Source: Caldilineae bacterium (lineage in GTDB: Bacteria; Chloroflexota; Anaerolineae; Epilineales; Epilineaceae). Taken from it: a DNA stretch of 64,000 bases. The DNA is taken from the NCBI GenBank assembly GCA_020634625.1, contig JACKBJ010000019.1, forward strand, positions 1,001 to 65,000, written 5' to 3'. Positions 40,871-50,583 of the stretch are shown here, piece after piece (positions within the stretch are counted from its first letter, which is position 1; every line of letters begins with the position of its first letter). The notes beneath the pieces are model-generated. The model was not told the origin of the DNA. It ran no database searches and saw only the letters and a list, made by a program, of their open reading frames with translations. The translations under genes were made by a program, and so were the position numbers.

Positions 40871-42010
40871 ATGCGAAGATCACTCGCGACGTCTAAGTAT
40901 GGCATGGCCTTGGTGCTGGCGACAATGCTGTGTTGGCAAGGCGTTGAAGTTGCACATGCTGGAATTGAAGTGCTTGTCAATGGAGACATTAAGTTCTATG
41001 TCAATCCGGGTGACAACTGCGAACAGTCAGACGCGAGTCATGTGACGGGGTTTAGTCTCAACGTCACAGCCAAGAAAGTAACTGATGCGGCGATTTCAAA
41101 GGCGTTTTCCACGCCCTGCATTACAGTGAATCAGCCCTGCTACTTCGGTGACATGAACTCGCCAGTGATATCCGGAGACTCCGTCACCTGGACCAAGAAC
41201 CCTGCTGGAATTCGAGTGTTCGGTGCAGGGACAGGCTACCACTACGGTTATGATTACTCGCTACCGACGAACACGCCTGACTCTGGTCCGGAGCCAGCGG
41301 AGACTCCTACTCCAGATATCACTCATAGTGTAGCGGGAGTATACTCGTTAGATGGCAGCGCCAAAAAACGAGCTTGTACGCCAGTCTCGCTAACAATTAC
41401 TCCCGGGCACACACTGCTCTCATGGCGCAACATGCTCGTTTCACGTGCCATTGCGGCACCGTTCTCTCAGGAACCTACGAGCGTGCTTGACACGACAGAG
41501 ATTGCCATTACTCCCATCGCATCGTCGAGTGCTGATAATGGCGATGGCATGGCAACAGACGACAACAGTAGTAGTGATGATCGCCCGCGATCGTTCTTTA
41601 TTCTCCGTCGAGTAACTGACCAGGACCTGACGCTCGACCAACTATCTAGAGCGAACACGGAATTTAATGATTGGAAGAACACCAGTATTACGCACGTCGT
41701 GGAAGGGCAGTACTTTCCAAACGACCATCCTCCTCACGTAATATCGATTCCCGTCAATACCCCGTATCACTTCGACGGAATGCGGTGGGCTCAATGGAAG
41801 TGGGAGGTGCTTGAGGTATTGATAGATGCGCCGAGGCTTGACAAAGCCACTTTTGCTTCCAACGAGCAGTGGTCATCTCGGATCTTCATCGCGACCGAGT
41901 CGGCAGGCAAGTCAAGTCAATTGCCTCTCTATCTCACTCTCGCAACGGCGAGTCTACTAGTGCTCGTTCTCGCCCGCATGCGCAACTGGATCGGCGCGAG
42001 CAGAGAGTAG
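40871..42010 (+). CDS. Orphan secreted protein with C-terminal hydrophobic anchor (low-G+C islet)
   Basis: The ATG at 40871 follows GGGAGGG (the track ORF begins at the TTG at 40829). Signal peptide MRRSLATSKYGMALVLATMLCWQGVEVAHA. C-terminal tail LPLYLTLATASLLVLVLARMRNW is a TM helix plus basic residues. No family was recognised. A/T-ending codons are unlike the flanking genes. Confidence 0.6.
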   Translation: MRRSLATSKYGMALVLATMLCWQGVEVAHAGIEVLVNGDIKFYVNPGDNCEQSDASHVTGFSLNVTAKKVTDAAISKAFSTPCITVNQPCYFGDMNSPVISGDSVTWTKNPAGIRVFGAGTGYHYGYDYSLPTNTPDSGPEPAETPTPDITHSVAGVYSLDGSAKKRACTPVSLTITPGHTLLSWRNMLVSRAIAAPFSQEPTSVLDTTEIAITPIASSSADNGDGMATDDNSSSDDRPRSFFILRRVTDQDLTLDQLSRANTEFNDWKNTSITHVVEGQYFPNDHPPHVISIPVNTPYHFDGMRWAQWKWEVLEVLIDAPRLDKATFASNEQWSSRIFIATESAGKSSQLPLYLTLATASLLVLVLARMRNWIGASRE

Positions 42011-42134: not shown

Positions 42135-45100
42135 TTAGTCGGGAACGGAGTGGCAGAGCCGAAGCCCGGCATCCGAAAACCTGGAACTGGCGTGCACGGT
42201 GTGACGCAAATATATGTGCTGACTCGTGTCGGGAAGTGCCCAAGTGCTTCCGCGCAGACACTGCTGCGTCGTGAAACTGGGGGCGTTTACATTCCGCAGA
42301 TGTGTTCGCTGTACCCACTGTCGAACATTGCCAAGCATATCGACTGCCCCTGCGGCTGAGTCACCTAAAGGGAAGACGCCGATGGGTGACGGTCTTCTCA
42401 AATGTGTCCAACTTCCGCCGATACTTCCTGCTGGCGGTGAGGCAGGGGCCGGATCAGCTAGGCTATTGAGGTGTCCAGCAACTTCCCACTCGATCTCAGT
42501 TGGCAGTCGATACGCCCTGCCGTCTTGAATCGAAAGCCATCTACAGTATGCTTGTGCCTCGAACCATGTTATCCCGACTACCGGCTGGAGTGGGTGATTG
42601 AATTCGTCGACGTTCCAGTACTCAGGGCTTCGGATCTTTTTGTCTGGGGCGTAACGTGCTAGTTCTTCCTCGAACTCAAGATCGTTCAATCGCATCCAGC
42701 GCTTCCACCTGCTGTATACTCGTTCTAGGGCAAGGCCTTCAGACCATTGCCGCTCGAGTAGGGTGGGATCAGCCTGAAACCGTTTGCGCCAAGTGCGTTC
42801 GCGCTCGCGGCCTCCTTCTCCGGTGCCATGACCGCTCCACCACTCTCGCGCTTCGGGCGTGTCCCACCACTGGGGATCTTCATAGCTGCCAGACTCCATG
42901 AAGCAAGCCCATTCGGCGCAGGTTACAGGAAACATGCCGATCTGAAAGCGTTCGAGGCGGACACTGAGATTCGGTTCAGGGCTCGTGATTTCAGAGTCAG
43001 ATGCAAGCACTTGATATCTGCCCGGAGGTATCTCGACCATCGGTGGCTTGATATACGATCCATGCCGACCGACTAGTTTGACTAGTCTCGGATCGCCGAG
43101 CAATCCGAGAGCATCGGCCGCTGCAATGCGGCAACGCAAGTCAGCTAGTGCGTCGCGGCTCCGATCTACAAGTGCGCACTGCAGTTCGGTGCGCAGTAGT
43201 TCAGATATGTGAGCTTCTGGATGTGCTGCACACAGACCGGCTAGCGAAAGATTGACGTGCATGATTCTTCGTACCAGCGACTCGGCATCGGGAGTCATGA
43301 CGGTCGCCATAATGGTTGTCTCTTCCCATCCTGTTGTGGGAAGCGAAGGTAGGGTTTCTGCAGGTGCTAGAGACGCCAACGTTTCTTCCAGACTTGGCTG
43401 TACTTCATCGGCACGCCAACTCGTCGCAACCTCAGCGGGTTCCGGTGTTATGGCAAACTGGCGCGCCGCAAAGAATTCTTGCAGCAACTGATGGTAGAAG
43501 TGCAATTCATCTGATCCGGCATCAAGTTCGAGTACTCCTAAAGACATCCCCGCATCGAGGACCCTTGGCGATTTGACTCGACCCACAATGGCAGTGGCTT
43601 CATCGTAGCCGATGCGTACTTGGGAGCCTGTAGCGGAGCCGTGGACGCGCTGCATCGAGAACGCGAGATGTGCGATTGTGCTCAGGAGACTCCCGGCCGA
43701 CGGTAACTCCCAGGGTGTCTTCCAGTGGGTTGCGGTCAGGATGCGTCGGCGATCGCGCTCGGGAACCAGATCCTCGTCTTCGAGCAGCGGGTTTTCAGTC
43801 TCGAGTTCTCGCTTGAGTGCATTTCTTACGAAGCCAGCGAAGAGACCAACGCTGCCTCGTGGAGCTGTTCCGGTCTCGATGATCTGTTCAACGAGTAGCT
43901 TGAGCATGTATGGCGTTCGAAGAGCGCCCAGACGAGAGCGGTCAGCAATGAGGTCGGACCACACTCGCGCGGCTATGTCGGCGCGAAGATGGCTGTCAAG
44001 GAATGCGCGCATGCGATGCTCATCCATCGCCTCGATCCGGGCTTGCGGCACTCTTAGAGTCTCGGACGATAGTGGCGCGCTGTAGTCCAGGCTGCGGCAC
44101 GAGATGACAATGGTGTTGCCCGGATGATGGAGGTGCAGTTGTTGTATGAAACTGCGCCAGGCGCGGACACGCTGATGATAGGTGTCTGGATAGTCGTGAG
44201 GCATTTCGTTTAGAGCATCTAGGAGCAGAAGCATGCGGCGCTGCGCAAACAAACGTTCTAGCGGCGGCAAATCTGGATGGCGCTCTGCCCATAGCGCGGT
44301 GAGCCAGGATCTCGGGTCAGGCGGATCGGCGCCAGGTCGAGTACTGCGGTAGCTGTTCAGCGGTACGAACAGCGTGATGGGCACCTCATCGCCGGCAAGC
44401 CCACGCGCGGCTGTATCCATCTCGAGTTGTCGCAGAAGAGTGCTCTTGCCGGAACCTGGAGCGCCTAGGACGACCAAAGCATTATCATCGATAGACTTCA
44501 GGAGTTCGCCGAGCGAGTCGAATTGTCTGTCGTCTTGCCGCCATCCGAGTTCCTCGCCGTGATCAATGAGCAGGCTCAGGCGAACGAACCGCAAGTCCAA
44601 CTGGTAACGTGGCTGCTGCCAGCGTTCGAGGCAATCGCGTCGATACGTTTCCAGCGGTAGCCGTTCGGGCTCGAGTGCTTGTAACTGGCGGGCGGCGACC
44701 GCCTCCCGACGATTGATCTCGTCCGTCAGTAGCACGCGTCCTTTGCCTCTACGGCGATCGAACGTGTTGCGACTTGTGCTAGCCGAATCGGCGACTTCGT
44801 CCGCAAGGCGACCCGCCGGTGAGAGGTCGTAGTGAAACAGTGCGCTCCACGATTCGCGTTCTGCGTTGCCAGCGGCGAAGTCTGCTCGAAGGCAGGCGTC
44901 GAGCGGTGCGTTCTGGTCGACGGTGGCATCGGCGCGCTCGATCCTCCGGCAATCGAGCAGATTGGCATAGACGATCGCCTGGATCAACTCCGCCAGCGCC
45001 TGGGCTCGCCCGATTCTGTTTCCCGACGCGCGCACGCGCAATGACACGCATGCCAGTGCGGTGAGTGGATCCTTGGCGTCAATCTGCCCAGTGCTCAGCG

Positions 45101-45149
45101 ACTTGAGTGTGCGTTTGACCTGCGCCGCATCGATCGGTTTGTTCGTCAC
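42135..45149 (-). CDS. NACHT-type STAND NTPase with HEAT-like linker and C-terminal FGE/SUMF1 (formylglycine-generating-enzyme-like) domain
   Basis: GTG start at 45149 preceded by GGAGG. Walker [15 protein letters not shown] (nt 44439..44465), Walker B LLLLDALNEMP. HEAT-like AAADALGLLGDPRL. C-terminal FGE hallmarks are FQIGMFPVTCAEW, GITWFEAQAYCRWL, YRLPTEIEWE, GNVRQWV and RGSTW. The first ~215 aa are unassigned. Confidence 0.85.
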   Translation of the reverse strand: MTNKPIDAAQVKRTLKSLSTGQIDAKDPLTALACVSLRVRASGNRIGRAQALAELIQAIVYANLLDCRRIERADATVDQNAPLDACLRADFAAGNAERESWSALFHYDLSPAGRLADEVADSASTSRNTFDRRRGKGRVLLTDEINRREAVAARQLQALEPERLPLETYRRDCLERWQQPRYQLDLRFVRLSLLIDHGEELGWRQDDRQFDSLGELLKSIDDNALVVLGAPGSGKSTLLRQLEMDTAARGLAGDEVPITLFVPLNSYRSTRPGADPPDPRSWLTALWAERHPDLPPLERLFAQRRMLLLLDALNEMPHDYPDTYHQRVRAWRSFIQQLHLHHPGNTIVISCRSLDYSAPLSSETLRVPQARIEAMDEHRMRAFLDSHLRADIAARVWSDLIADRSRLGALRTPYMLKLLVEQIIETGTAPRGSVGLFAGFVRNALKRELETENPLLEDEDLVPERDRRRILTATHWKTPWELPSAGSLLSTIAHLAFSMQRVHGSATGSQVRIGYDEATAIVGRVKSPRVLDAGMSLGVLELDAGSDELHFYHQLLQEFFAARQFAITPEPAEVATSWRADEVQPSLEETLASLAPAETLPSLPTTGWEETTIMATVMTPDAESLVRRIMHVNLSLAGLCAAHPEAHISELLRTELQCALVDRSRDALADLRCRIAAADALGLLGDPRLVKLVGRHGSYIKPPMVEIPPGRYQVLASDSEITSPEPNLSVRLERFQIGMFPVTCAEWACFMESGSYEDPQWWDTPEAREWWSGHGTGEGGRERERTWRKRFQADPTLLERQWSEGLALERVYSRWKRWMRLNDLEFEEELARYAPDKKIRSPEYWNVDEFNHPLQPVVGITWFEAQAYCRWLSIQDGRAYRLPTEIEWEVAGHLNSLADPAPASPPAGSIGGSWTHLRRPSPIGVFPLGDSAAGAVDMLGNVRQWVQRTHLRNVNAPSFTTQQCLRGSTWALPDTSQHIYLRHTVHASSRFSDAGLRLCHSVPD

Positions 45150-45211
45150 GACGTGCCTCCATTGGGGAGTGGCCGATCGGTTCTCACGATACTACGGTCG
45201 TCAAGTCGGTG

Positions 45212-45229
45212 GTGTGACGTGAGTCACAC
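45212..45229. promoter_or_regulatory. Palindrome GTGTGAC-GTGA-GTCACAC in the divergent NACHT/cyclase intergenic region
   Basis: Perfect 7-bp inverted repeat read from the sequence, flanked by direct copies of ACTACGG (45191, 45234). Confidence 0.4.
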
Positions 45230-45274
45230 ATCGACTACGGCGTGGCTCACGACGGGGTTGCGGTCATTTCGTGC

Positions 45275-45292
45275 TCAATCGTGCGATTGAGG
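45275..45292. promoter_or_regulatory. Palindrome CTCAATCG-TG-CGATTGAG in the same divergent intergenic region
   Basis: Perfect 8-bp inverted repeat read from the sequence, about 100 nt upstream of the cyclase ATG. Confidence 0.4.
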
Positions 45293-45395
45293 AAATCTTG
45301 GTGAAAGGCTGAGGAGAATCGCGAGGAGTCGGCGGCCCCCCGGCGTAGATTGTCACCAGATGGGAATGACATGACGCTGATGAAAGGAGCCAGCC

Positions 45396-46319
45396 ATGAA
45401 CGCCAAGACGTGGAACAAGCCGAACCAGCCCAACTGCCCGATCGAAACCGCCCGCCAGCTCGCCGCGCAGCCGGCGACGAGCCCGAAGCACCTGATGGAG
45501 GAGCTGACCTTCATGGTCACCGACATCCGCAATAGCACCGCTGACTGGGCGATCCGGCCCGCCGAGACGTATCGGGCGCTGGTGGCGCACGACCGGATCA
45601 TGGTCGCCGCGGTCGAGTCGCGCGGTGGGCGGGTCTTCAACATTGTCGGCGACGCGGTGTTGGCGGCCTTCGAGCGGTCGACGGATGCGCTGGCGGCGGC
45701 GCTAGCGGCGCAGCACGCACTGCGGGTGCGTGACCAGCGGGTGGCCGAGGGCGAGCTGCAGCTGGCCGATCGGGTCTGCATCGGCCTGCACACCGGGACG
45801 GTCTACCGGCTCGGCGACGACTACCGTGGCCTGGAGCTGTGTCGCGTCGCGCGGATCGTGCACGAGGGCAAGGGTGGCGAGATCCTGGCCTCGAGCCGAG
45901 TGGCTGCCCAGCTGCGCGAGCAGCTGCCGGAGGGATGTCGGCTGCGGGATCGTGGCTACGCCTACCTGCAGGGCATCCGGGGCGCAGAGCGGCTCTTCCG
46001 GGTGGAGGCCGATCCGCTGGTTGCCTACGCGGCACCGGCCGCGCCGCTGCCGGGGCCCTGGGGGTTGCGACTGCGCCGTCTGGCCATTCAGGGCCTGGCC
46101 CTGGCCAGCCTGCTGATGGTCGAGCCGGTCTCGGCGACGGGGCCGGACCACGATCCGGTCGACCCGCCGCCGCCGAGCGCCACCGCCTGCCCGATGGAGA
46201 CGCCGGAGCCCTGGCGCTTCGACCCGGTGCCCCCGCTGCAGGGAGAGCGGCGCTCGGAGCCGGACGGTGGGGTGGATGCGGAGCGGGTCGGGCCGATGTC
46301 GGGCACCCGCGACGGCTAG
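45396..46319 (+). CDS. Stand-alone class III nucleotidyl (adenylate/guanylate) cyclase-domain protein with Pro-rich tail and one hydrophobic segment
   Basis: RBS AAAGGAG before the ATG at 45396. Cyclase homology-domain motifs are TFMVTDIRNSTADW (metal Asp 1), FNIVGDAVLAAF (metal Asp 2), CIGLHTGTV and RVARIVHEGKGGEILAS. The tail holds LAIQGLALASLLMV and Pro-rich sequence. Confidence 0.8.
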   Translation: MNAKTWNKPNQPNCPIETARQLAAQPATSPKHLMEELTFMVTDIRNSTADWAIRPAETYRALVAHDRIMVAAVESRGGRVFNIVGDAVLAAFERSTDALAAALAAQHALRVRDQRVAEGELQLADRVCIGLHTGTVYRLGDDYRGLELCRVARIVHEGKGGEILASSRVAAQLREQLPEGCRLRDRGYAYLQGIRGAERLFRVEADPLVAYAAPAAPLPGPWGLRLRRLAIQGLALASLLMVEPVSATGPDHDPVDPPPPSATACPMETPEPWRFDPVPPLQGERRSEPDGGVDAERVGPMSGTRDG

Positions 46320-46393
46320 ACGCCGCGATGTGAAGGCCGTCGCGGGTGCTGGGCAAGGCCGAGGCGCAAAGCGGTCTGCCGGGCCCGCAACCG

Positions 46394-46695: not shown

Positions 46696-49600
46696 CTAGC
46701 GGTTCGTGCCGGCTCGGACGGTGACGCGCACAGGCGCCGCCTCCCCCGGTACCGGCACCAACGTCACGCCGACCGGCCCCCGCGCCTCGGCGGCCGCCCG
46801 ACTGCCGTAGCCGTGCGCGAAGCCCAGCGTGCGCGCCACCGGCCGGCCGCCCAGGTCGATCGTCTCGACCCGGCCGTCGCCCCAGTCGATGCGCGCCTCG
46901 GACAGGCGGATCGGCTCGGCCGCGTTGCCCAGGTCGATGCGCAGCTGCGTGCGGCCGGTCGCGTCGACGACGAGCTGGCCGGCCGCCGTCAGGTTCTTGG
47001 CCAGGAAGTTGAAGGCGTCGCCCAGCAGCTGCGTGCGGCTGGCGCTGCCCTCGCCGGCCTGGCCGACGCCCTCGAGGCCGAAGCCCCAGTACATGGCGTT
47101 CCAGGCCACCTCGGCCTCCGGGTGCTGCTTGCCGGCCACGTAGGTGCCGACCACGTTGAGCGTGTCGGTCAGGCCCATCGTGGTGCTGATGGTGACCGGA
47201 TAGCTCCACAGCGGCTTGGCGATCGAGGCCGGGCGCGACATCAGCATGCCGTCGACCACGTCGCTCAGGCCCGAGGTCGAGGCCGCCGGCGCCTGGTACT
47301 CGCCGAGAACGCCGCCGGAGTTGAACAGGTACTGGTTGCCGGCCGCGCCGTCCTTGGCCAGGCCGCCGGTCGAGATGTCCAGCGCGTAGTCGAAGGGCCC
47401 CTCGGCCTCCGGATGCCGCTCGAGCCGCACCGCCATCTCGGGCCGGTCCGGCGCCATCGGGTAAGGCAGCAGCAGCCGGTTCGACAGCGTCGCCGTGTAG
47501 CCCGGCGTGTAGCCGGCGAAGTAGCGCGCGATGCGCATCTCGCAGCCGCCGTTCTGGCTCGGCCCGAGCCAACGGTGCGGCCAGGTGTCGGGGTAGGCTG
47601 CCTTGGCCGCCGGCGTGTCGGGCAGCGGGGCCACGACGCCGTTGCTCAGGTAGCCCCACCAGCCCTGGGTGCCCTGGCCGGCGATCAGCAGGTTGCCGCC
47701 GCCCAGCAGGTAGTTCTGGTACTGGTACTGGCCGGCCAGCGCCTTCTGCAGGCTCACCTGGCTCTCGTTGGTGTTCAGGATCACCAGGTCGTGGCGGTAC
47801 ATCGCCTCGTAGGTCGGGTGCTGGCTCTGGGCGACGCCCTCGGCATGCTCGCCGTTCTCGCCCATGCCCCAGACCGCGTAGCGGAGGCCCAGCTCGTCGA
47901 GCGCGTCGGTGTAGTAGCGCGTGTAGTCCTCGGTCTCGCCGTAGGTCCAGTCGACGATCAGCACGTCGGCGCGGTCCTCGGGGATGTCGACGTAGGCGTA
48001 GTAGACCAGGCGCAGCGTGCGCAGGTCCTCGTCCTCCCCCGTGGGCGGATCGGCCTGGTCCGGGGCATCGGCGGCATCGCCGGATGCCAAGCCGGCCGCG
48101 CTGGGCGCCACGCCGAGCTCGGCGCCGTTGACCAGGGCCGGCAGGAAGATGCCCTCGGGGCCCGGCGCGCGCTGCGTGAGCCGGATGTCGCCCCAGTGCT
48201 CGTGCTCGCCGACGTCCATGGTGTCGATGCTGACGGTGAAGGAACCGACCTCGCCCGGCTCCAGGCGCAGACTATCGGGCTCGAAGGCGATGGCCGCGTC
48301 GCCGGCGCCGGGCGCCAGCGACAGGTCCCAGACGATCGTCTCCGGCGAATCGCTCTCGACCAGGATCTCGATCGTGTCCGAGTCGCCTGCCTGCAGCGCG
48401 CCGAAGCTGGCCTTGGGCGGGTACAGGAAGGCGCGCGGGTCGTGCGCATCGGCCAGGTTGACCCGGCCCGGGCCGCCCATGGTCGGGTCGGCCGGCTCGA
48501 GGTCGCCATCGACGATCGTCGGCAGGCTGGTGTTGATCAGCGCGCTGCGCAGCTGCTCGACCGTCCAACCGGGATGCATCGAGCGTAGCAGGCCGGCCGA
48601 GCCGGTGATGTGCGGCGCCGACATCGAGGTGCCGCTGTAGGCCGGCCAGGTGGCGATGGTCGGCGGGTTGGTCGCGTCCTGGGGGTTCTCGTCGCCCAGC
48701 ACGCTCGAGATGATGTTGGTGCCCGGCGCCGAGATGTCGGGCTTGAGGGTCCAGTCCAGGCCCGGGCCGCGGCTCGAGCTGCCGGCCAGGATGTCGCCGA
48801 TGCCCTTGTAGTCGCGGATCTGCTGGACGTTCAGCGTCACGTCCAGGCTCTCGCCCGCCTCCAGCAACGCCAGCAGCTCGGCGCCGCCGTTGGCGCCGAC
48901 GAACAGGCCGGGGATCGGGAAGTTGCCCGCCACGGTCACCCCGTCCGGGCGGTCCAGCAGCAACAGCACCATCGCCTTGGCGCCGCTGGCCGACATCGTC
49001 GACAGACGGCTGGCGTAGTTGCAGCCGCCGACCAGGCTCGCGCCGGGCGTGAAGTAGACACCGACCGCGATCTTGCCCGCGACGGCCGGGTTGGCCGAGC
49101 AGCCGCCGTTCGTGTCCAGCGCCAGCGTGCCGGTGACCGGCGCCGAGGGCGTGCCGATGGCCGAGCCCAACAGGCTGAGCACCGGATCCGGCAGGTCCGT
49201 CTGCTCGAAGGTGATCGGGATGCCCAGGCGGCCGATGGAGCTGGTGTTGCCGACCACCATCAGGTCCTCGCTGTACTTCCAACCACCCGAGAGCGAGGTG
49301 CGGCCGTTGCCACCGGCGTTGCCGGCCGAGCCGACCACCAGGATGCCCGCGTCGGCCGCGCCGCTCATGGCCACGCTGACCGGGTGGGTCTCGGGGCGAT
49401 CGGTCAGCCAGGTCACGGTGCCCAGCGAGAGGTTGACCGCGTCGATCTCCTCGACCGCCATCATCTCGAAGGCCGCGATCATCTCCGGCGTCTCGCCGAA
49501 GACCGGATAGGTGAACAGCCAGGCGTTGGGCGCGACGCCGCCCATCTCGACCTCGACGCCCGGCGCGATCGCGTAGCTGCCGTAGCGGCCCGAGATGGTG

Positions 49601-50475
49601 CCGGCGACGTGCGAGCCGTGGCTCGACACGTAGGTGCCGCTGGCCAGCAGGGCGACGTCCTGCTCGGTCAGCGTGTCGTCGGCGAAGACGCGATGGCCGA
49701 CCACCTTGTCGTTGACGATGGCCTCGGGATGCGGGCTGATCGCCAGCAGGTCGACCGTGCTGCCGTCGGGCTTGTAAAGCATCGCCGAGGGCAGACCCTC
49801 GGGCGGCTCGGGCATGCCCTCGTCGTTGAAGAAGGGATGCAGCGGCGCGTTGCCGGCCTCCAGGGTGGCCACCCGGGCGCCCAGGCCGGCCTCGGCCACG
49901 CCGCCCGAGGCCTCCCAGGCCTGCAGGGTGCCGATCAGCCGCTGGGTCGAGTCCATCTCCTCGACCAGCGCCTCGGCCGGGTAGACCAGGCGCACCCCAT
50001 CCAGGCGCATCGCCTGCGCCGCGCTGCGCGGCGTCATGCGCACGGCGAAGCCGTTGAGCACCGTGTCGTAGCGCCAGCCCACCGCGTCCAGCTCGGGCGC
50101 CAGGTAGCGCAGCTTGCCGATCAGGACCTCCTGCTGCCGGGCCAGGTAGGCCCGATAGGCCTTGGCGGCGCGGCTCTCGGTGTCGAGGTGAACCGTCGCC
50201 TGGCCGTCGATCAGCTTGCCGCCGGCGCTGTCGACCGAGGTCGGCGCCAGGCCGGCGATGCCGCCGCGGTAGCTGGCCAGGGGCGGCGCCTCCAACACGA
50301 CGATGTAGCGCTGCAGGGTCTGCTGGCCTTCGGCGGCCGCGTCGAGCGCCGCCACCAGGCGCTGCGTCGACGGGTCGCTGGCCGGCGCGCCGAAGACGGC
50401 CGTCGGGCCGCCCAGGGCCAGGCAGAGCAGGCCCAACAGGCCTGCGACGGGGCGGCGCCAGAAATGAGCTCGCAT
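46696..50475 (-). CDS. Large secreted S8 (subtilisin-like) peptidase with I9 propeptide, PA insert, unassigned C-terminal module and PKD-like end; paralog 1
   Basis: Trimmed to the ATG at 50475 with the signal MRAHFWRRPVAGLLGLLCLALGGPTAVFG. I9-like RYIVVLEAPPLASY. S8 motifs SSHGSHVAGTI, AVNLSLG and SGTSMSAPHITGSAGLL. C-terminal IDWGDG is a PKD hallmark. Confidence 0.9.
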   Translation of the reverse strand: MRAHFWRRPVAGLLGLLCLALGGPTAVFGAPASDPSTQRLVAALDAAAEGQQTLQRYIVVLEAPPLASYRGGIAGLAPTSVDSAGGKLIDGQATVHLDTESRAAKAYRAYLARQQEVLIGKLRYLAPELDAVGWRYDTVLNGFAVRMTPRSAAQAMRLDGVRLVYPAEALVEEMDSTQRLIGTLQAWEASGGVAEAGLGARVATLEAGNAPLHPFFNDEGMPEPPEGLPSAMLYKPDGSTVDLLAISPHPEAIVNDKVVGHRVFADDTLTEQDVALLASGTYVSSHGSHVAGTISGRYGSYAIAPGVEVEMGGVAPNAWLFTYPVFGETPEMIAAFEMMAVEEIDAVNLSLGTVTWLTDRPETHPVSVAMSGAADAGILVVGSAGNAGGNGRTSLSGGWKYSEDLMVVGNTSSIGRLGIPITFEQTDLPDPVLSLLGSAIGTPSAPVTGTLALDTNGGCSANPAVAGKIAVGVYFTPGASLVGGCNYASRLSTMSASGAKAMVLLLLDRPDGVTVAGNFPIPGLFVGANGGAELLALLEAGESLDVTLNVQQIRDYKGIGDILAGSSSRGPGLDWTLKPDISAPGTNIISSVLGDENPQDATNPPTIATWPAYSGTSMSAPHITGSAGLLRSMHPGWTVEQLRSALINTSLPTIVDGDLEPADPTMGGPGRVNLADAHDPRAFLYPPKASFGALQAGDSDTIEILVESDSPETIVWDLSLAPGAGDAAIAFEPDSLRLEPGEVGSFTVSIDTMDVGEHEHWGDIRLTQRAPGPEGIFLPALVNGAELGVAPSAAGLASGDAADAPDQADPPTGEDEDLRTLRLVYYAYVDIPEDRADVLIVDWTYGETEDYTRYYTDALDELGLRYAVWGMGENGEHAEGVAQSQHPTYEAMYRHDLVILNTNESQVSLQKALAGQYQYQNYLLGGGNLLIAGQGTQGWWGYLSNGVVAPLPDTPAAKAAYPDTWPHRWLGPSQNGGCEMRIARYFAGYTPGYTATLSNRLLLPYPMAPDRPEMAVRLERHPEAEGPFDYALDISTGGLAKDGAAGNQYLFNSGGVLGEYQAPAASTSGLSDVVDGMLMSRPASIAKPLWSYPVTISTTMGLTDTLNVVGTYVAGKQHPEAEVAWNAMYWGFGLEGVGQAGEGSASRTQLLGDAFNFLAKNLTAAGQLVVDATGRTQLRIDLGNAAEPIRLSEARIDWGDGRVETIDLGGRPVARTLGFAHGYGSRAAAEARGPVGVTLVPVPGEAAPVRVTVRAGTNR

Positions 50476-50583
50476 CGTGGATTCGGTCTCCCGGGTGGGC
50501 GTGCGGGGCACGCGCGGCTTGGCTGGGGCCTCGCCTCGACCGAGGCTCGGCCGGCACAGAATCGCGGCTCGTCGACTCGACGC

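Follow-up and report, generated by a model that had tools for sequence, protein, structure and literature searches.

The sensor gene and its domain organization

A 64,000-bp stretch of DNA (the window) from contig JACKBJ010000019.1 of a Caldilineae bacterium metagenome-assembled genome (MAG) was found to contain a gene for a 1004-aa NLR-like STAND NTPase (42135..45149, reverse strand), here called the sensor, with a helix-turn-helix (HTH)-like N-terminal module, a NACHT domain and a C-terminal FGE/SUMF1-fold domain. Divergent to it lies a stand-alone class-III-cyclase-like gene (45396..46319, forward strand; 307 aa, MCB9177432.1). The sensor protein was shown by exact-sequence match to be identical to NCBI entry MCB9177431.1 from the same MAG, which carries the name 'SUMF1/EgtB/PvdO family nonheme iron enzyme' and thereby ignores the NACHT NTPase. 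The open reading frame (ORF) starts with GTG, 9 nt downstream of a GGAGG Shine-Dalgarno sequence, and this start is credible since residue 1 aligns with the N-termini of homologues. The initial annotation of the window, made from the sequence alone, had listed the 1004-aa ORF, its Walker A, Walker B and RTPYML motifs and an FGE/SUMF1-type C-terminus, and all of these were confirmed. Its assignment to the NACHT/STAND-NLR architecture was likewise borne out, with Pfam NACHT and FGE-sulfatase both scoring above cut-off.

Pfam NACHT matched residues 225-389 (43983..44477; all sensor features lie on the reverse strand) with 49.3 bits (cut-off 26.7, E 6.5e-13). The Walker A motif GAPGSGKST (residues 229-237; 44439-44465) is an intact GxxxxGK[ST] with K235 as the catalytic Lys. 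The Walker B motif LLLLDALNE (residues 307-315; 44205-44231) reads D-A-L-N-E, with Asn where the NACHT signature D[GAS]hDE has Asp, and DALNE was invariant across the family. In the full-length family alignment (A4), G229, P231, G232, G234, K235, S236, D311, N314 and E315 showed no variation. Upstream of the NACHT domain, a helical segment (residues 166-215; 44505..44654) opens the core common to all family members, whatever their N-terminal module: all 120 homologues compared align from about query residue 166, and W177, L184, V189 and L191 are invariant in A4. Downstream, a family-conserved helical/winged-helix arm and linker (residues 390-690; 43080..43982; A4) includes the RTPYML motif (residues 411-416; 43902-43919). 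The linker had been described as HEAT-like, which applies to a single LGLLGDPR motif (43086-43130); it gave no Pfam HEAT match, and it aligned with the segment preceding the FGE-like domain of ToxD (PDB 7spq). The tripartite layout of the NACHT clade is thus present, with output (1-165), NTPase and helical/winged-helix arm (166-690) and C-terminal sensor (702-998), and the evidence from the sequence supports the NACHT module being an intact NTP-dependent oligomerisation switch.

The C-terminal domain (FGS, C-type-lectin-like; residues 702-998; 42156..43046) was matched by Pfam FGE-sulfatase with 106.3 bits (cut-off 23.3, E 2.6e-30) and by PDB profiles of EgtB (5e-15), ToxD (1e-10), PvdO and PorK. 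Whether the Cu/Cys residues of true FGEs are retained had been raised in the initial annotation, and they are not: in a MAFFT alignment, the two catalytic Cys columns, provisionally assigned from the human SUMF1 sequence (C336/C341), hold Leu and Gln in the sensor and non-Cys residues in all 40 aligned family members. Because both catalytic cysteines are absent, the domain is predicted to be a binding module and not an enzyme, and the name 'nonheme iron enzyme' is misleading. Together these data support the view that this non-catalytic FGE/C-type-lectin-fold domain is a predicted ligand-binding sensor. The charged helical insert of ~65 aa seen earlier (residues ~773-840; 42630-42833) is real, and it was found to be conserved family-wide and not peculiar to this protein. 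Variability in the family alignment was highest over the last ~40 residues.

A search of 5.8 billion proteins gave 634 sensor homologues, the best with 43% identity and with a shared core at 38-46% identity; a scan of the genome contigs with the sensor gave no close relative. N-termini in the family are interchangeable on a constant core that starts at about residue 166 and runs from NACHT through the helical arm to the FGE domain: Guanylate_cyc (PF00211), TIR_2, Pkinase, Trypsin_2, PF19961, PF19974, PF20690, or none. The sensor belongs to a known kind, as bacterial NACHT proteins that use FGS as an 'antigen-receptor-type' sensor have been described with this architecture. Published NACHT-FGS proteins carry a variety of N-terminal effectors or adaptors, among them cyclic nucleoside monophosphate (cNMP) cyclases and DNA-binding domains (Kaur et al., 2020, PMC7159879; Kibby et al., 10.1101/2022.07.19.500537; Dore et al., 2024, PMC10907252; PMC13581612), and the earlier suggestion of an undescribed system is for this reason not supported. 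A structural cluster of NACHT proteins with FGE-sulfatase sensors has been reported (PMC13581612), and bacterial NLR-related proteins protect against phage (Kibby et al., 10.1101/2022.07.19.500537). FGS-bearing STAND proteins are abundant in filamentous or multicellular bacteria and have been proposed to be antigen receptors, none of them with a demonstrated function in the literature consulted. The layout of the sensor also agrees with that of the STAND-CLec proteins, for which Dore et al. (2024, PMC10907252) note that experimental characterization is lacking.

The sensor locus was present in five independent metagenome assemblies at 99.93-100% identity. In one metagenomic copy (L009; ENA ERZ27309260 contig k141_580626, corresponding to window 44067-45479), a one-base change introduces a stop after residue 181, and gene calling split the sensor there into ORFs of 181 aa and 176+ aa. 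Some cells of the natural population thus appear to carry an inactive sensor.

The N-terminal module

A BLAST comparison with the 120 homologues placed the boundary of the variable N-terminal module (N-module) at residue 165 (residues 1-165; 44655..45149). The N-terminus had been taken initially as ~215 unrecognised residues; it is modelled as all-helical, as was then supposed, no Pfam model covers it, and its true length is ~165 residues, since 166-215 belong to the core conserved family-wide. The N-module consists of a four-helix N-subdomain (1-77) followed by an HTH subdomain resembling sigma-70 region 4 (78-165). The N-terminal ~160 residues of the query were common to 32 of the 120 best homologues, and an alignment of 24 of these 32 (A1) gave the conserved pattern DFxxGxxxxEAWSxLYxRYL...LAxxLGxxxRTLxRRxxRGxxLLAxALRxAE.

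An exhaustive HMMER search with the N-module profile against 1.84 billion cluster representatives (50% identity) showed 972 clusters at E<=1e-3 and 605 at E<=1e-10. Every match was located at the extreme N-terminus (residues 1-~170) of proteins of mostly ~900-1150 aa. Among 48 sampled carriers, the co-occurring domains were TPR_12 (37), AAA_16 (36), NB-ARC (25), nSTAND1 (23), NACHT (19) and FGE-sulfatase (10); a further carrier was a 1768-aa nSTAND1-WD40 protein. Judged by this distribution, the N-module attaches promiscuously to the N-terminus of several STAND classes and is a recurrent predicted output module. A word-index search of the 5.8 billion proteins with the N-module alignment retrieved only a 181-aa fragment of the query itself.

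In the initial annotation, a possible sigma-r4/LuxR-like HTH had been pointed out around SASTSRNTFDRRRGKGRVLL, and this segment proved to be the most conserved part of the N-module. The predicted HTH core comprises residues 115-141 (LADEVADSASTSRNTFDRRRGKGRVLL; 44727..44807), with RTLxRRxxRG in the predicted recognition helix and its T/R/R/G columns nearly invariant. AlphaFold2 predicted an all-helical N-module with a predicted local distance difference test (pLDDT) score of 91.4 for residues 1-170 and of 94.7 for residues 78-165. Almost all PDB profile matches of the HTH half were HTH DNA-binding domains, among them TetR (E 0.0024), SigR region 4 (0.11), SigW region 4 (0.22) and the LacI headpiece HTH (~0.5). 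Foldseek comparisons of the HTH half were dominated by sigma region 4 (SigR 5fgm with prob 0.92, template modelling score (TM) normalized to the target 0.64 and E 0.73; SigD 3vfz with a root-mean-square deviation of 2.1 Å over 50 columns) and also included the DNA-binding domains of TetR, DeoR and DnaA. Besides, hhalign placed the HTH half on region 4.2 of RpoE. The C-terminal half of the N-module thus looks like an HTH of the sigma-70 region 4 type and is modelled as such with confidence, the matches themselves being below significance. The HTH assignment is made because the weak matches are consistent with each other and because the T/R/R/G residues are conserved in the predicted recognition helix. 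Since the segment around SASTSRNTFDRRRGKGRVLL is conserved, models as an HTH and finds its best matches in sigma region 4 and other HTHs, what the initial annotation had kept as a fallback, a signalling regulator, is now the better supported reading.

The N-module as a whole was also considered as a sigma factor. Full-length extracytoplasmic function (ECF) sigma factors, similar in size to the N-module, were at the top of both whole-module Foldseek lists (PDB and the viral BFVD), at TM ~0.28 and with no E below 0.19. For residues 1-77, neither Pfam nor PDB profiles nor hhalign against RpoE gave a signal of sigma region 2, and no RpoE homologue was detectable in 96 homologous loci or in the window. 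By these tests the N-module does not classify as a sigma factor.

The divergent cyclase, the intergenic region and the neighbouring genes

The window cyclase comprises a cyclase domain (residues ~37-214), a hydrophobic helix (229-247) and a Pro-rich tail; it is probably membrane-associated. Pfam Guanylate_cyc matched it marginally (24.6 bits, cut-off 21.9). It was 36-43% identical (E to 7.6e-31) to cyclase modules that are fused N-terminally to NACHT-FGS homologues. Moreover, the closest sensor homologue (P0001, 43% identity; JGI metagenome 3300023199, locus L001) was found to have a 319-aa cyclase gene in the same divergent position. The two stand-alone cyclases showed 54% identity over 263 residues (E 2e-79), in a match that includes the C-terminal hydrophobic helix; the L001 orthologue is not detected by Pfam. 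A third connection was found in P0175 (1151 aa) and P0236 (1105 aa), in which an N-module, a cyclase-like domain, NB-ARC and TPR are present in one polypeptide. Three independent lines of evidence thus link sensor and cyclase: similarity to the fused cyclases, the divergent pairing in P0001, and the combination of N-module and cyclase in P0175 and P0236. The attention drawn to the adjacent cyclase at the outset was therefore justified. The cyclase domains of the two fusion proteins are partly degenerate, P0175 being without the substrate Lys and P0236 without the first metal-binding region.

The catalytic set of class III cyclases comprises two metal-binding Asp, a substrate Lys, a transition-state Asn and an Arg. 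Both stand-alone cyclases retain the two metal-binding Asp and the catalytic Arg, and both show FN(I/M)xGD and LCRxxR motifs (FNIVGD and LCRVAR in the window), i.e., Lys to Asn and Asn to Cys changes, whereas the fused effector cyclases retain the canonical Lys of FKTxGD and Asn of LNRxAR. From these substitutions, the stand-alone cyclases may have an unusual specificity or may be pseudo-enzymes.

Two other explanations for the cyclase gene were rejected. It could have been the stump of a truncated cyclase-NACHT-FGS gene; however, the 307-aa form including the C-terminal helix is conserved in L001, and tblastn showed no NACHT or FGS remnant downstream of the cyclase. An EAD/Death-like adaptor role of the N-module, paired with the neighbour, would call for a copy of the module on the cyclase; no Pfam EAD match was found, and the N-module hidden Markov model matched neither stand-alone cyclase. 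As the cyclase is without a copy of the N-module, there is no EAD-style homotypic pairing. PycC matched the window cyclase with E 6e-5 and partial coverage, no gene with a cNMP-binding domain was found adjacent to the cyclase, and the locus does not classify as Pycsar.

The divergent intergenic region between sensor and cyclase (45150..45395, 246 bp) contains two perfect 18-bp palindromes detected by a palindrome scan, GTGTGACgtgaGTCACAC (45212-45229) and CTCAATCGtgCGATTGAG (45274-45291), which are candidate operators. Each is unique within the window, and by our own estimate the chance expectation is ~0.03 (8-nt arm) and 0.14 (7-nt arm). No sigma-70 consensus promoter was found in 45150-45395. 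At the other end of the cyclase gene, a perfect 14-nt inverted repeat with a 19-nt loop (46303..46349) overlaps the stop codon and is a possible bidirectional terminator between the cyclase and a convergent subtilase gene.

The G+C content at third codon positions (GC3) was 0.93-0.96 in host genes and 0.90 in the cyclase, compared to 0.60 in the whole sensor (0.70 in the N-module and 0.56 in the FGS domain) and 0.56 in an orphan gene convergent to the sensor (40871..42010, forward strand; 379 aa; ORF open from 40829). The low-G+C acquisition proposed earlier, with the cyclase next to it, is thus real as an islet of foreign composition from ~40.8 to 45.4 kb that holds the orphan gene and the sensor only; the cyclase is host-like and native. 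In five other genomes, the GC3 of NACHT-FGS genes agreed with that of the genes around them, so that the anomaly is particular to the window locus and points to recent import of the sensor and the orphan gene. Because the adjacency of sensor and cyclase is conserved in L001, the simplest reading is that a foreign allele took the place of a resident sensor beside a resident cyclase, which would be a xenologous replacement at a fixed effector locus. Independent short-read assemblies (L010-L013) repeatedly break near the edges of the low-GC segment (window ~40257/40739 and ~46626/47359), as would be expected if strains differed in the presence or the coverage of the islet.

The orphan protein has a signal-like N-terminal segment and a C-terminal hydrophobic anchor according to hydropathy. 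It gave no match in Pfam, NCBIfam, PADLOC or PDB and is absent from L001; as it is not conserved beside the homologues, it is probably not a core component. The gene is split by a 1-bp indel in one Logan assembly (L010 615-1753), and its 90%-identity cluster includes several fragments of 173-192 aa.

The neighbourhoods of N-module genes were otherwise diverse. In Chloroflexota MAGs, two or three paralogous N-module NACHT-FGS genes lie in tandem (L014 8589-15387; L015 357-13246; L016 1-13312), often adjoining PIN/MazE or PIN/PhdYeFM toxin-antitoxin pairs, GNAT acetyltransferases or very large unannotated secreted proteins. Near two related N-module NACHT-FGS genes (L002 6962-7756, 11203-12990; L004 11279-14017), proteins with BTAD (264-276 aa) and Laminin_G_3 (595-618 aa) domains recur; L002 in addition has a gene for a TCAD7-CHAT protein and a lipase-like gene, such as are typically seen in 'ternary conflict systems'. 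NB-ARC-TPR and NACHT-FGS genes with the same N-module were found a few kb apart in two loci (L003 1993-5073, 7725-11261; L046 536-3022, 6277-8184). Genes for S8 peptidases also recur: a large subtilase gene lies just past the cyclase (window 46696-50511, reverse strand), another is divergent to the homologue P0049 (L016 5294-9757), and an S8 peptidase beside a NACHT-CLec locus with a diversity-generating retroelement (DGR) was noted by Dore et al. (2024, PMC10907252). This recurrence may be a coincidence.

Interpretation and comparison with known systems

We consider the chances to be even that the locus encodes a STAND sensor with a DNA-binding output that is functionally tied to the cyclase; that the sensor activates transcription of the cyclase gene is rated below this overall picture. 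Binding of a ligand by the FGS domain would release autoinhibition, NTP-dependent oligomerisation of NACHT would cluster the HTH modules, and the clustered modules would bind the divergent promoter region with its two 18-bp palindromes and switch on the neighbouring stand-alone cyclase-like gene. The locus would then be a split version of the cyclase-NACHT-FGS architecture with the effector controlled in trans, most simply by transcription, and it would resemble STAND regulators of the MalT/AfsR type in which an NLR sensor has taken the place of the usual sensor domains. The trigger may be a molecule from an invader such as a phage, or it may be a ligand of endogenous or environmental origin.

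Several observations weigh against this interpretation. No single match of the HTH half was significant (the TetR profile was the best in PDB, and all Foldseek E-values were >= 0.65), Pfam Sigma70_r4_2 reached E 0.024 and did so in only 2 of the 24 aligned N-module members, and residues 1-77 had no match in Pfam or PDB profiles. We infer the operator role of the palindromes and DNA binding by the N-module purely from the sequence, and the intergenic region of L001 showed neither the window palindromes nor a convincing shared operator motif. Pairing with a neighbouring cyclase was seen in two loci only, which come from distant genomes, and was absent from 13 other N-module NACHT-FGS loci, so that it is specific to this sub-clade. 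In P0175 the N-module lies upstream of the cyclase in one chain, which equally fits a regulatory or localising accessory. As the canonical substrate Lys and transition-state Asn are replaced in both stand-alone cyclases, these may make no cyclic nucleotide. Finally, the stop after residue 181 in L009 implies that the sensor is dispensable in at least some cells.

The locus could instead encode a classical abortive-infection NLR (bNACHT/Avs-like), in which the FGS domain detects a protein of the phage and the N-module, once oligomerised, damages or occludes DNA, or recruits and activates the cyclase by protein contact, with no transcription involved; we find this rather unlikely. The same core carries the classical immune effectors TIR, cyclase, kinase and trypsin in paralogues, and homologues are found in tandem arrays next to toxin-antitoxin pairs and to a ternary-system gene of the TCAD7-CHAT type. 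Moreover, the DNA that carries the sensor was transferred recently, antiphage activity of bacterial NACHT proteins has been shown in experiments, and P0175 joins N-module and cyclase in one chain. However, PADLOC, named from the start as a check on a defence role, gave only P-loop noise for the sensor (best E 0.007), and the NCBIfam model for antiphage EruA reached 32 bits compared to a cut-off of 1000. The cyclase has no copy of the N-module for homotypic pairing and is without two canonical catalytic residues, there is no cNMP-binding effector nearby, and no STAND protein bearing FGS/CLec has been experimentally examined according to Dore et al. (2024, PMC10907252). The absence of a defence-model match is also a point in favour of an ordinary physiological or developmental regulator of the MalT/AfsR/GutR type, whose lectin-like FGS domain would bind a glycan or small molecule, endogenous or environmental, and whose HTH would control local genes with no role in conflict. 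Most N-module carriers are indeed NB-ARC/AAA_16-TPR proteins (MalT-like; 37 of the 48 sampled), which is the typical layout of STAND transcription regulators, BTAD (SARP-type regulator) neighbours recur, and non-defence STAND clades are interspersed among defence clades. Such a regulator is nevertheless judged unlikely: close relatives fuse the same NACHT-FGS core to TIR, trypsin, kinase and cyclase domains, and paralogue arrays, horizontal transfer and a variable C-terminal FGS surface are hallmarks of conflict systems. Besides, a DNA-binding N-terminus in conserved metabolic or developmental operons had been named at the outset as speaking against a defence system; the HTH was modelled confidently, and the neighbours of the homologues proved highly variable, with no conserved metabolic operon.

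Two further explanations concern the FGS domain. That its C-terminus is a DGR target, hypermutated by a reverse transcriptase (RT) to give an 'adaptive' antigen receptor, is suggested by FGS/CLec domains on STAND NTPases being DGR targets in multicellular bacteria and by the variability of the C-terminal ~40 residues in the family alignment. We regard it as very improbable and rejected it, since no template/variable repeat (TR/VR) pair was present in 39.5-47.5 kb, no ORF with the YxDD motif of RT in the 64-kb window and no RT in nine homologous loci inspected, and since the near-identity of the five metagenomic copies indicates no hypervariability of the sensor locus. The reading with the least credit is a SUMF1/EgtB/PvdO-family enzyme (formylglycine generation or sulfoxide synthase) with a regulatory NTPase. 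It has in its favour the NCBI name, the Pfam FGE-sulfatase match and the PDB matches to EgtB and OvoA-type enzymes. However, the Cu-binding catalytic cysteines are replaced, as described above, the EgtB model scored 73 bits compared to a cut-off of 360 and matched only through model positions 270-412, its C-terminal FGE-like part, and the SenA and OvoA models likewise matched through this part only and far under cut-off. The DinB-type N-terminal iron-binding domain of these models is absent from the sensor. Missing catalytic cysteines and partial-only models effectively refute an enzymatic role.

Under the preferred reading, a STAND sensor with a DNA-binding output tied to the cyclase, the locus is a compact and testable case in which a probably DNA-binding output stands beside a detached version of the effector that is fused in paralogues. 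If the HTH assignment is true, bacterial NLR-like sensors could signal via gene induction as well as via suicide enzymes, and a function would be at hand for a domain family of ~1000 clusters with no database model. The foreign sensor next to a native cyclase looks like replacement of a sensor by horizontal transfer at a fixed effector locus. A more far-reaching proposal, which we hold to be unlikely, is that the N-module represents a new transcriptional output class for NLR-like STAND NTPases (NACHT-FGS, NB-ARC-TPR and nSTAND1-WD40) and that the locus is a 'split NLR', in which pattern recognition by the FGS antigen-receptor domain would lead to induced transcription of a membrane-associated cyclase-like effector encoded in trans; taken to its extreme, this proposal would make the N-module an ECF-sigma-like domain that directs RNA polymerase and is gated by NACHT oligomerisation. 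If true, the 'split NLR' would give bacteria an equivalent of transcription-coupled NLR signalling. Among animal NACHT proteins, CIITA and NLRC5 have a transcriptional output; they act as coactivators and have no DNA-binding domain, and the analogy implies no homology beyond NACHT.

Compared to known bacterial NACHT-FGS proteins, the sensor shows the same order of N-terminal output, NACHT and C-terminal FGS and a core of the same kind, shared at 38-46% identity across hundreds of proteins, and cNMP cyclases and DNA-binding adaptors are among the output classes listed for them. It differs in its N-module, which has no Pfam model and was not found named in the literature consulted, and in that the effector-type cyclase is a separate divergent gene with an altered active site. 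The cyclase-NACHT-FGS fusions (such as P0036, P0028 and P0061) have a core 42-45% identical to that of the sensor and the N-terminal cyclases related to the window cyclase; they are single chains that keep the canonical Lys and Asn, whereas the window system has a separate cyclase with Asn, Cys and a hydrophobic C-terminal helix and a sensor that carries an HTH-like module. Unlike the EAD adaptor pairs (Kaur et al., 2020, PMC7159879), sensor and cyclase share no adaptor and no Pfam EAD match was obtained. With sigma-70 region 4 and ECF sigma factors, the HTH half has a region-4.2-like pattern and its best fold matches in common, but no match was significant and no region-2 signal was found in the N-terminal half.

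Like MalT, AfsR and GutR, the sensor is predicted to combine a ligand-controlled STAND NTPase with a DNA-binding domain, and the N-module is mostly found on NB-ARC/AAA_16 proteins with MalT-like TPR. However, MalT has a C-terminal LuxR HTH and AfsR (SARP-NB-ARC-TPR) an N-terminal OmpR-type winged HTH and BTAD, whereas the sensor has a sigma-region-4-like HTH after a four-helix subdomain, a NACHT NTPase and an FGE-fold sensor domain, and it is not a member of those families. The NACHT-FGS family and its logic are already known from published work; the sigma-region-4-like N-module that is not modelled in databases, its spread over STAND classes and the conserved split arrangement with a degenerate cyclase appear to be new.

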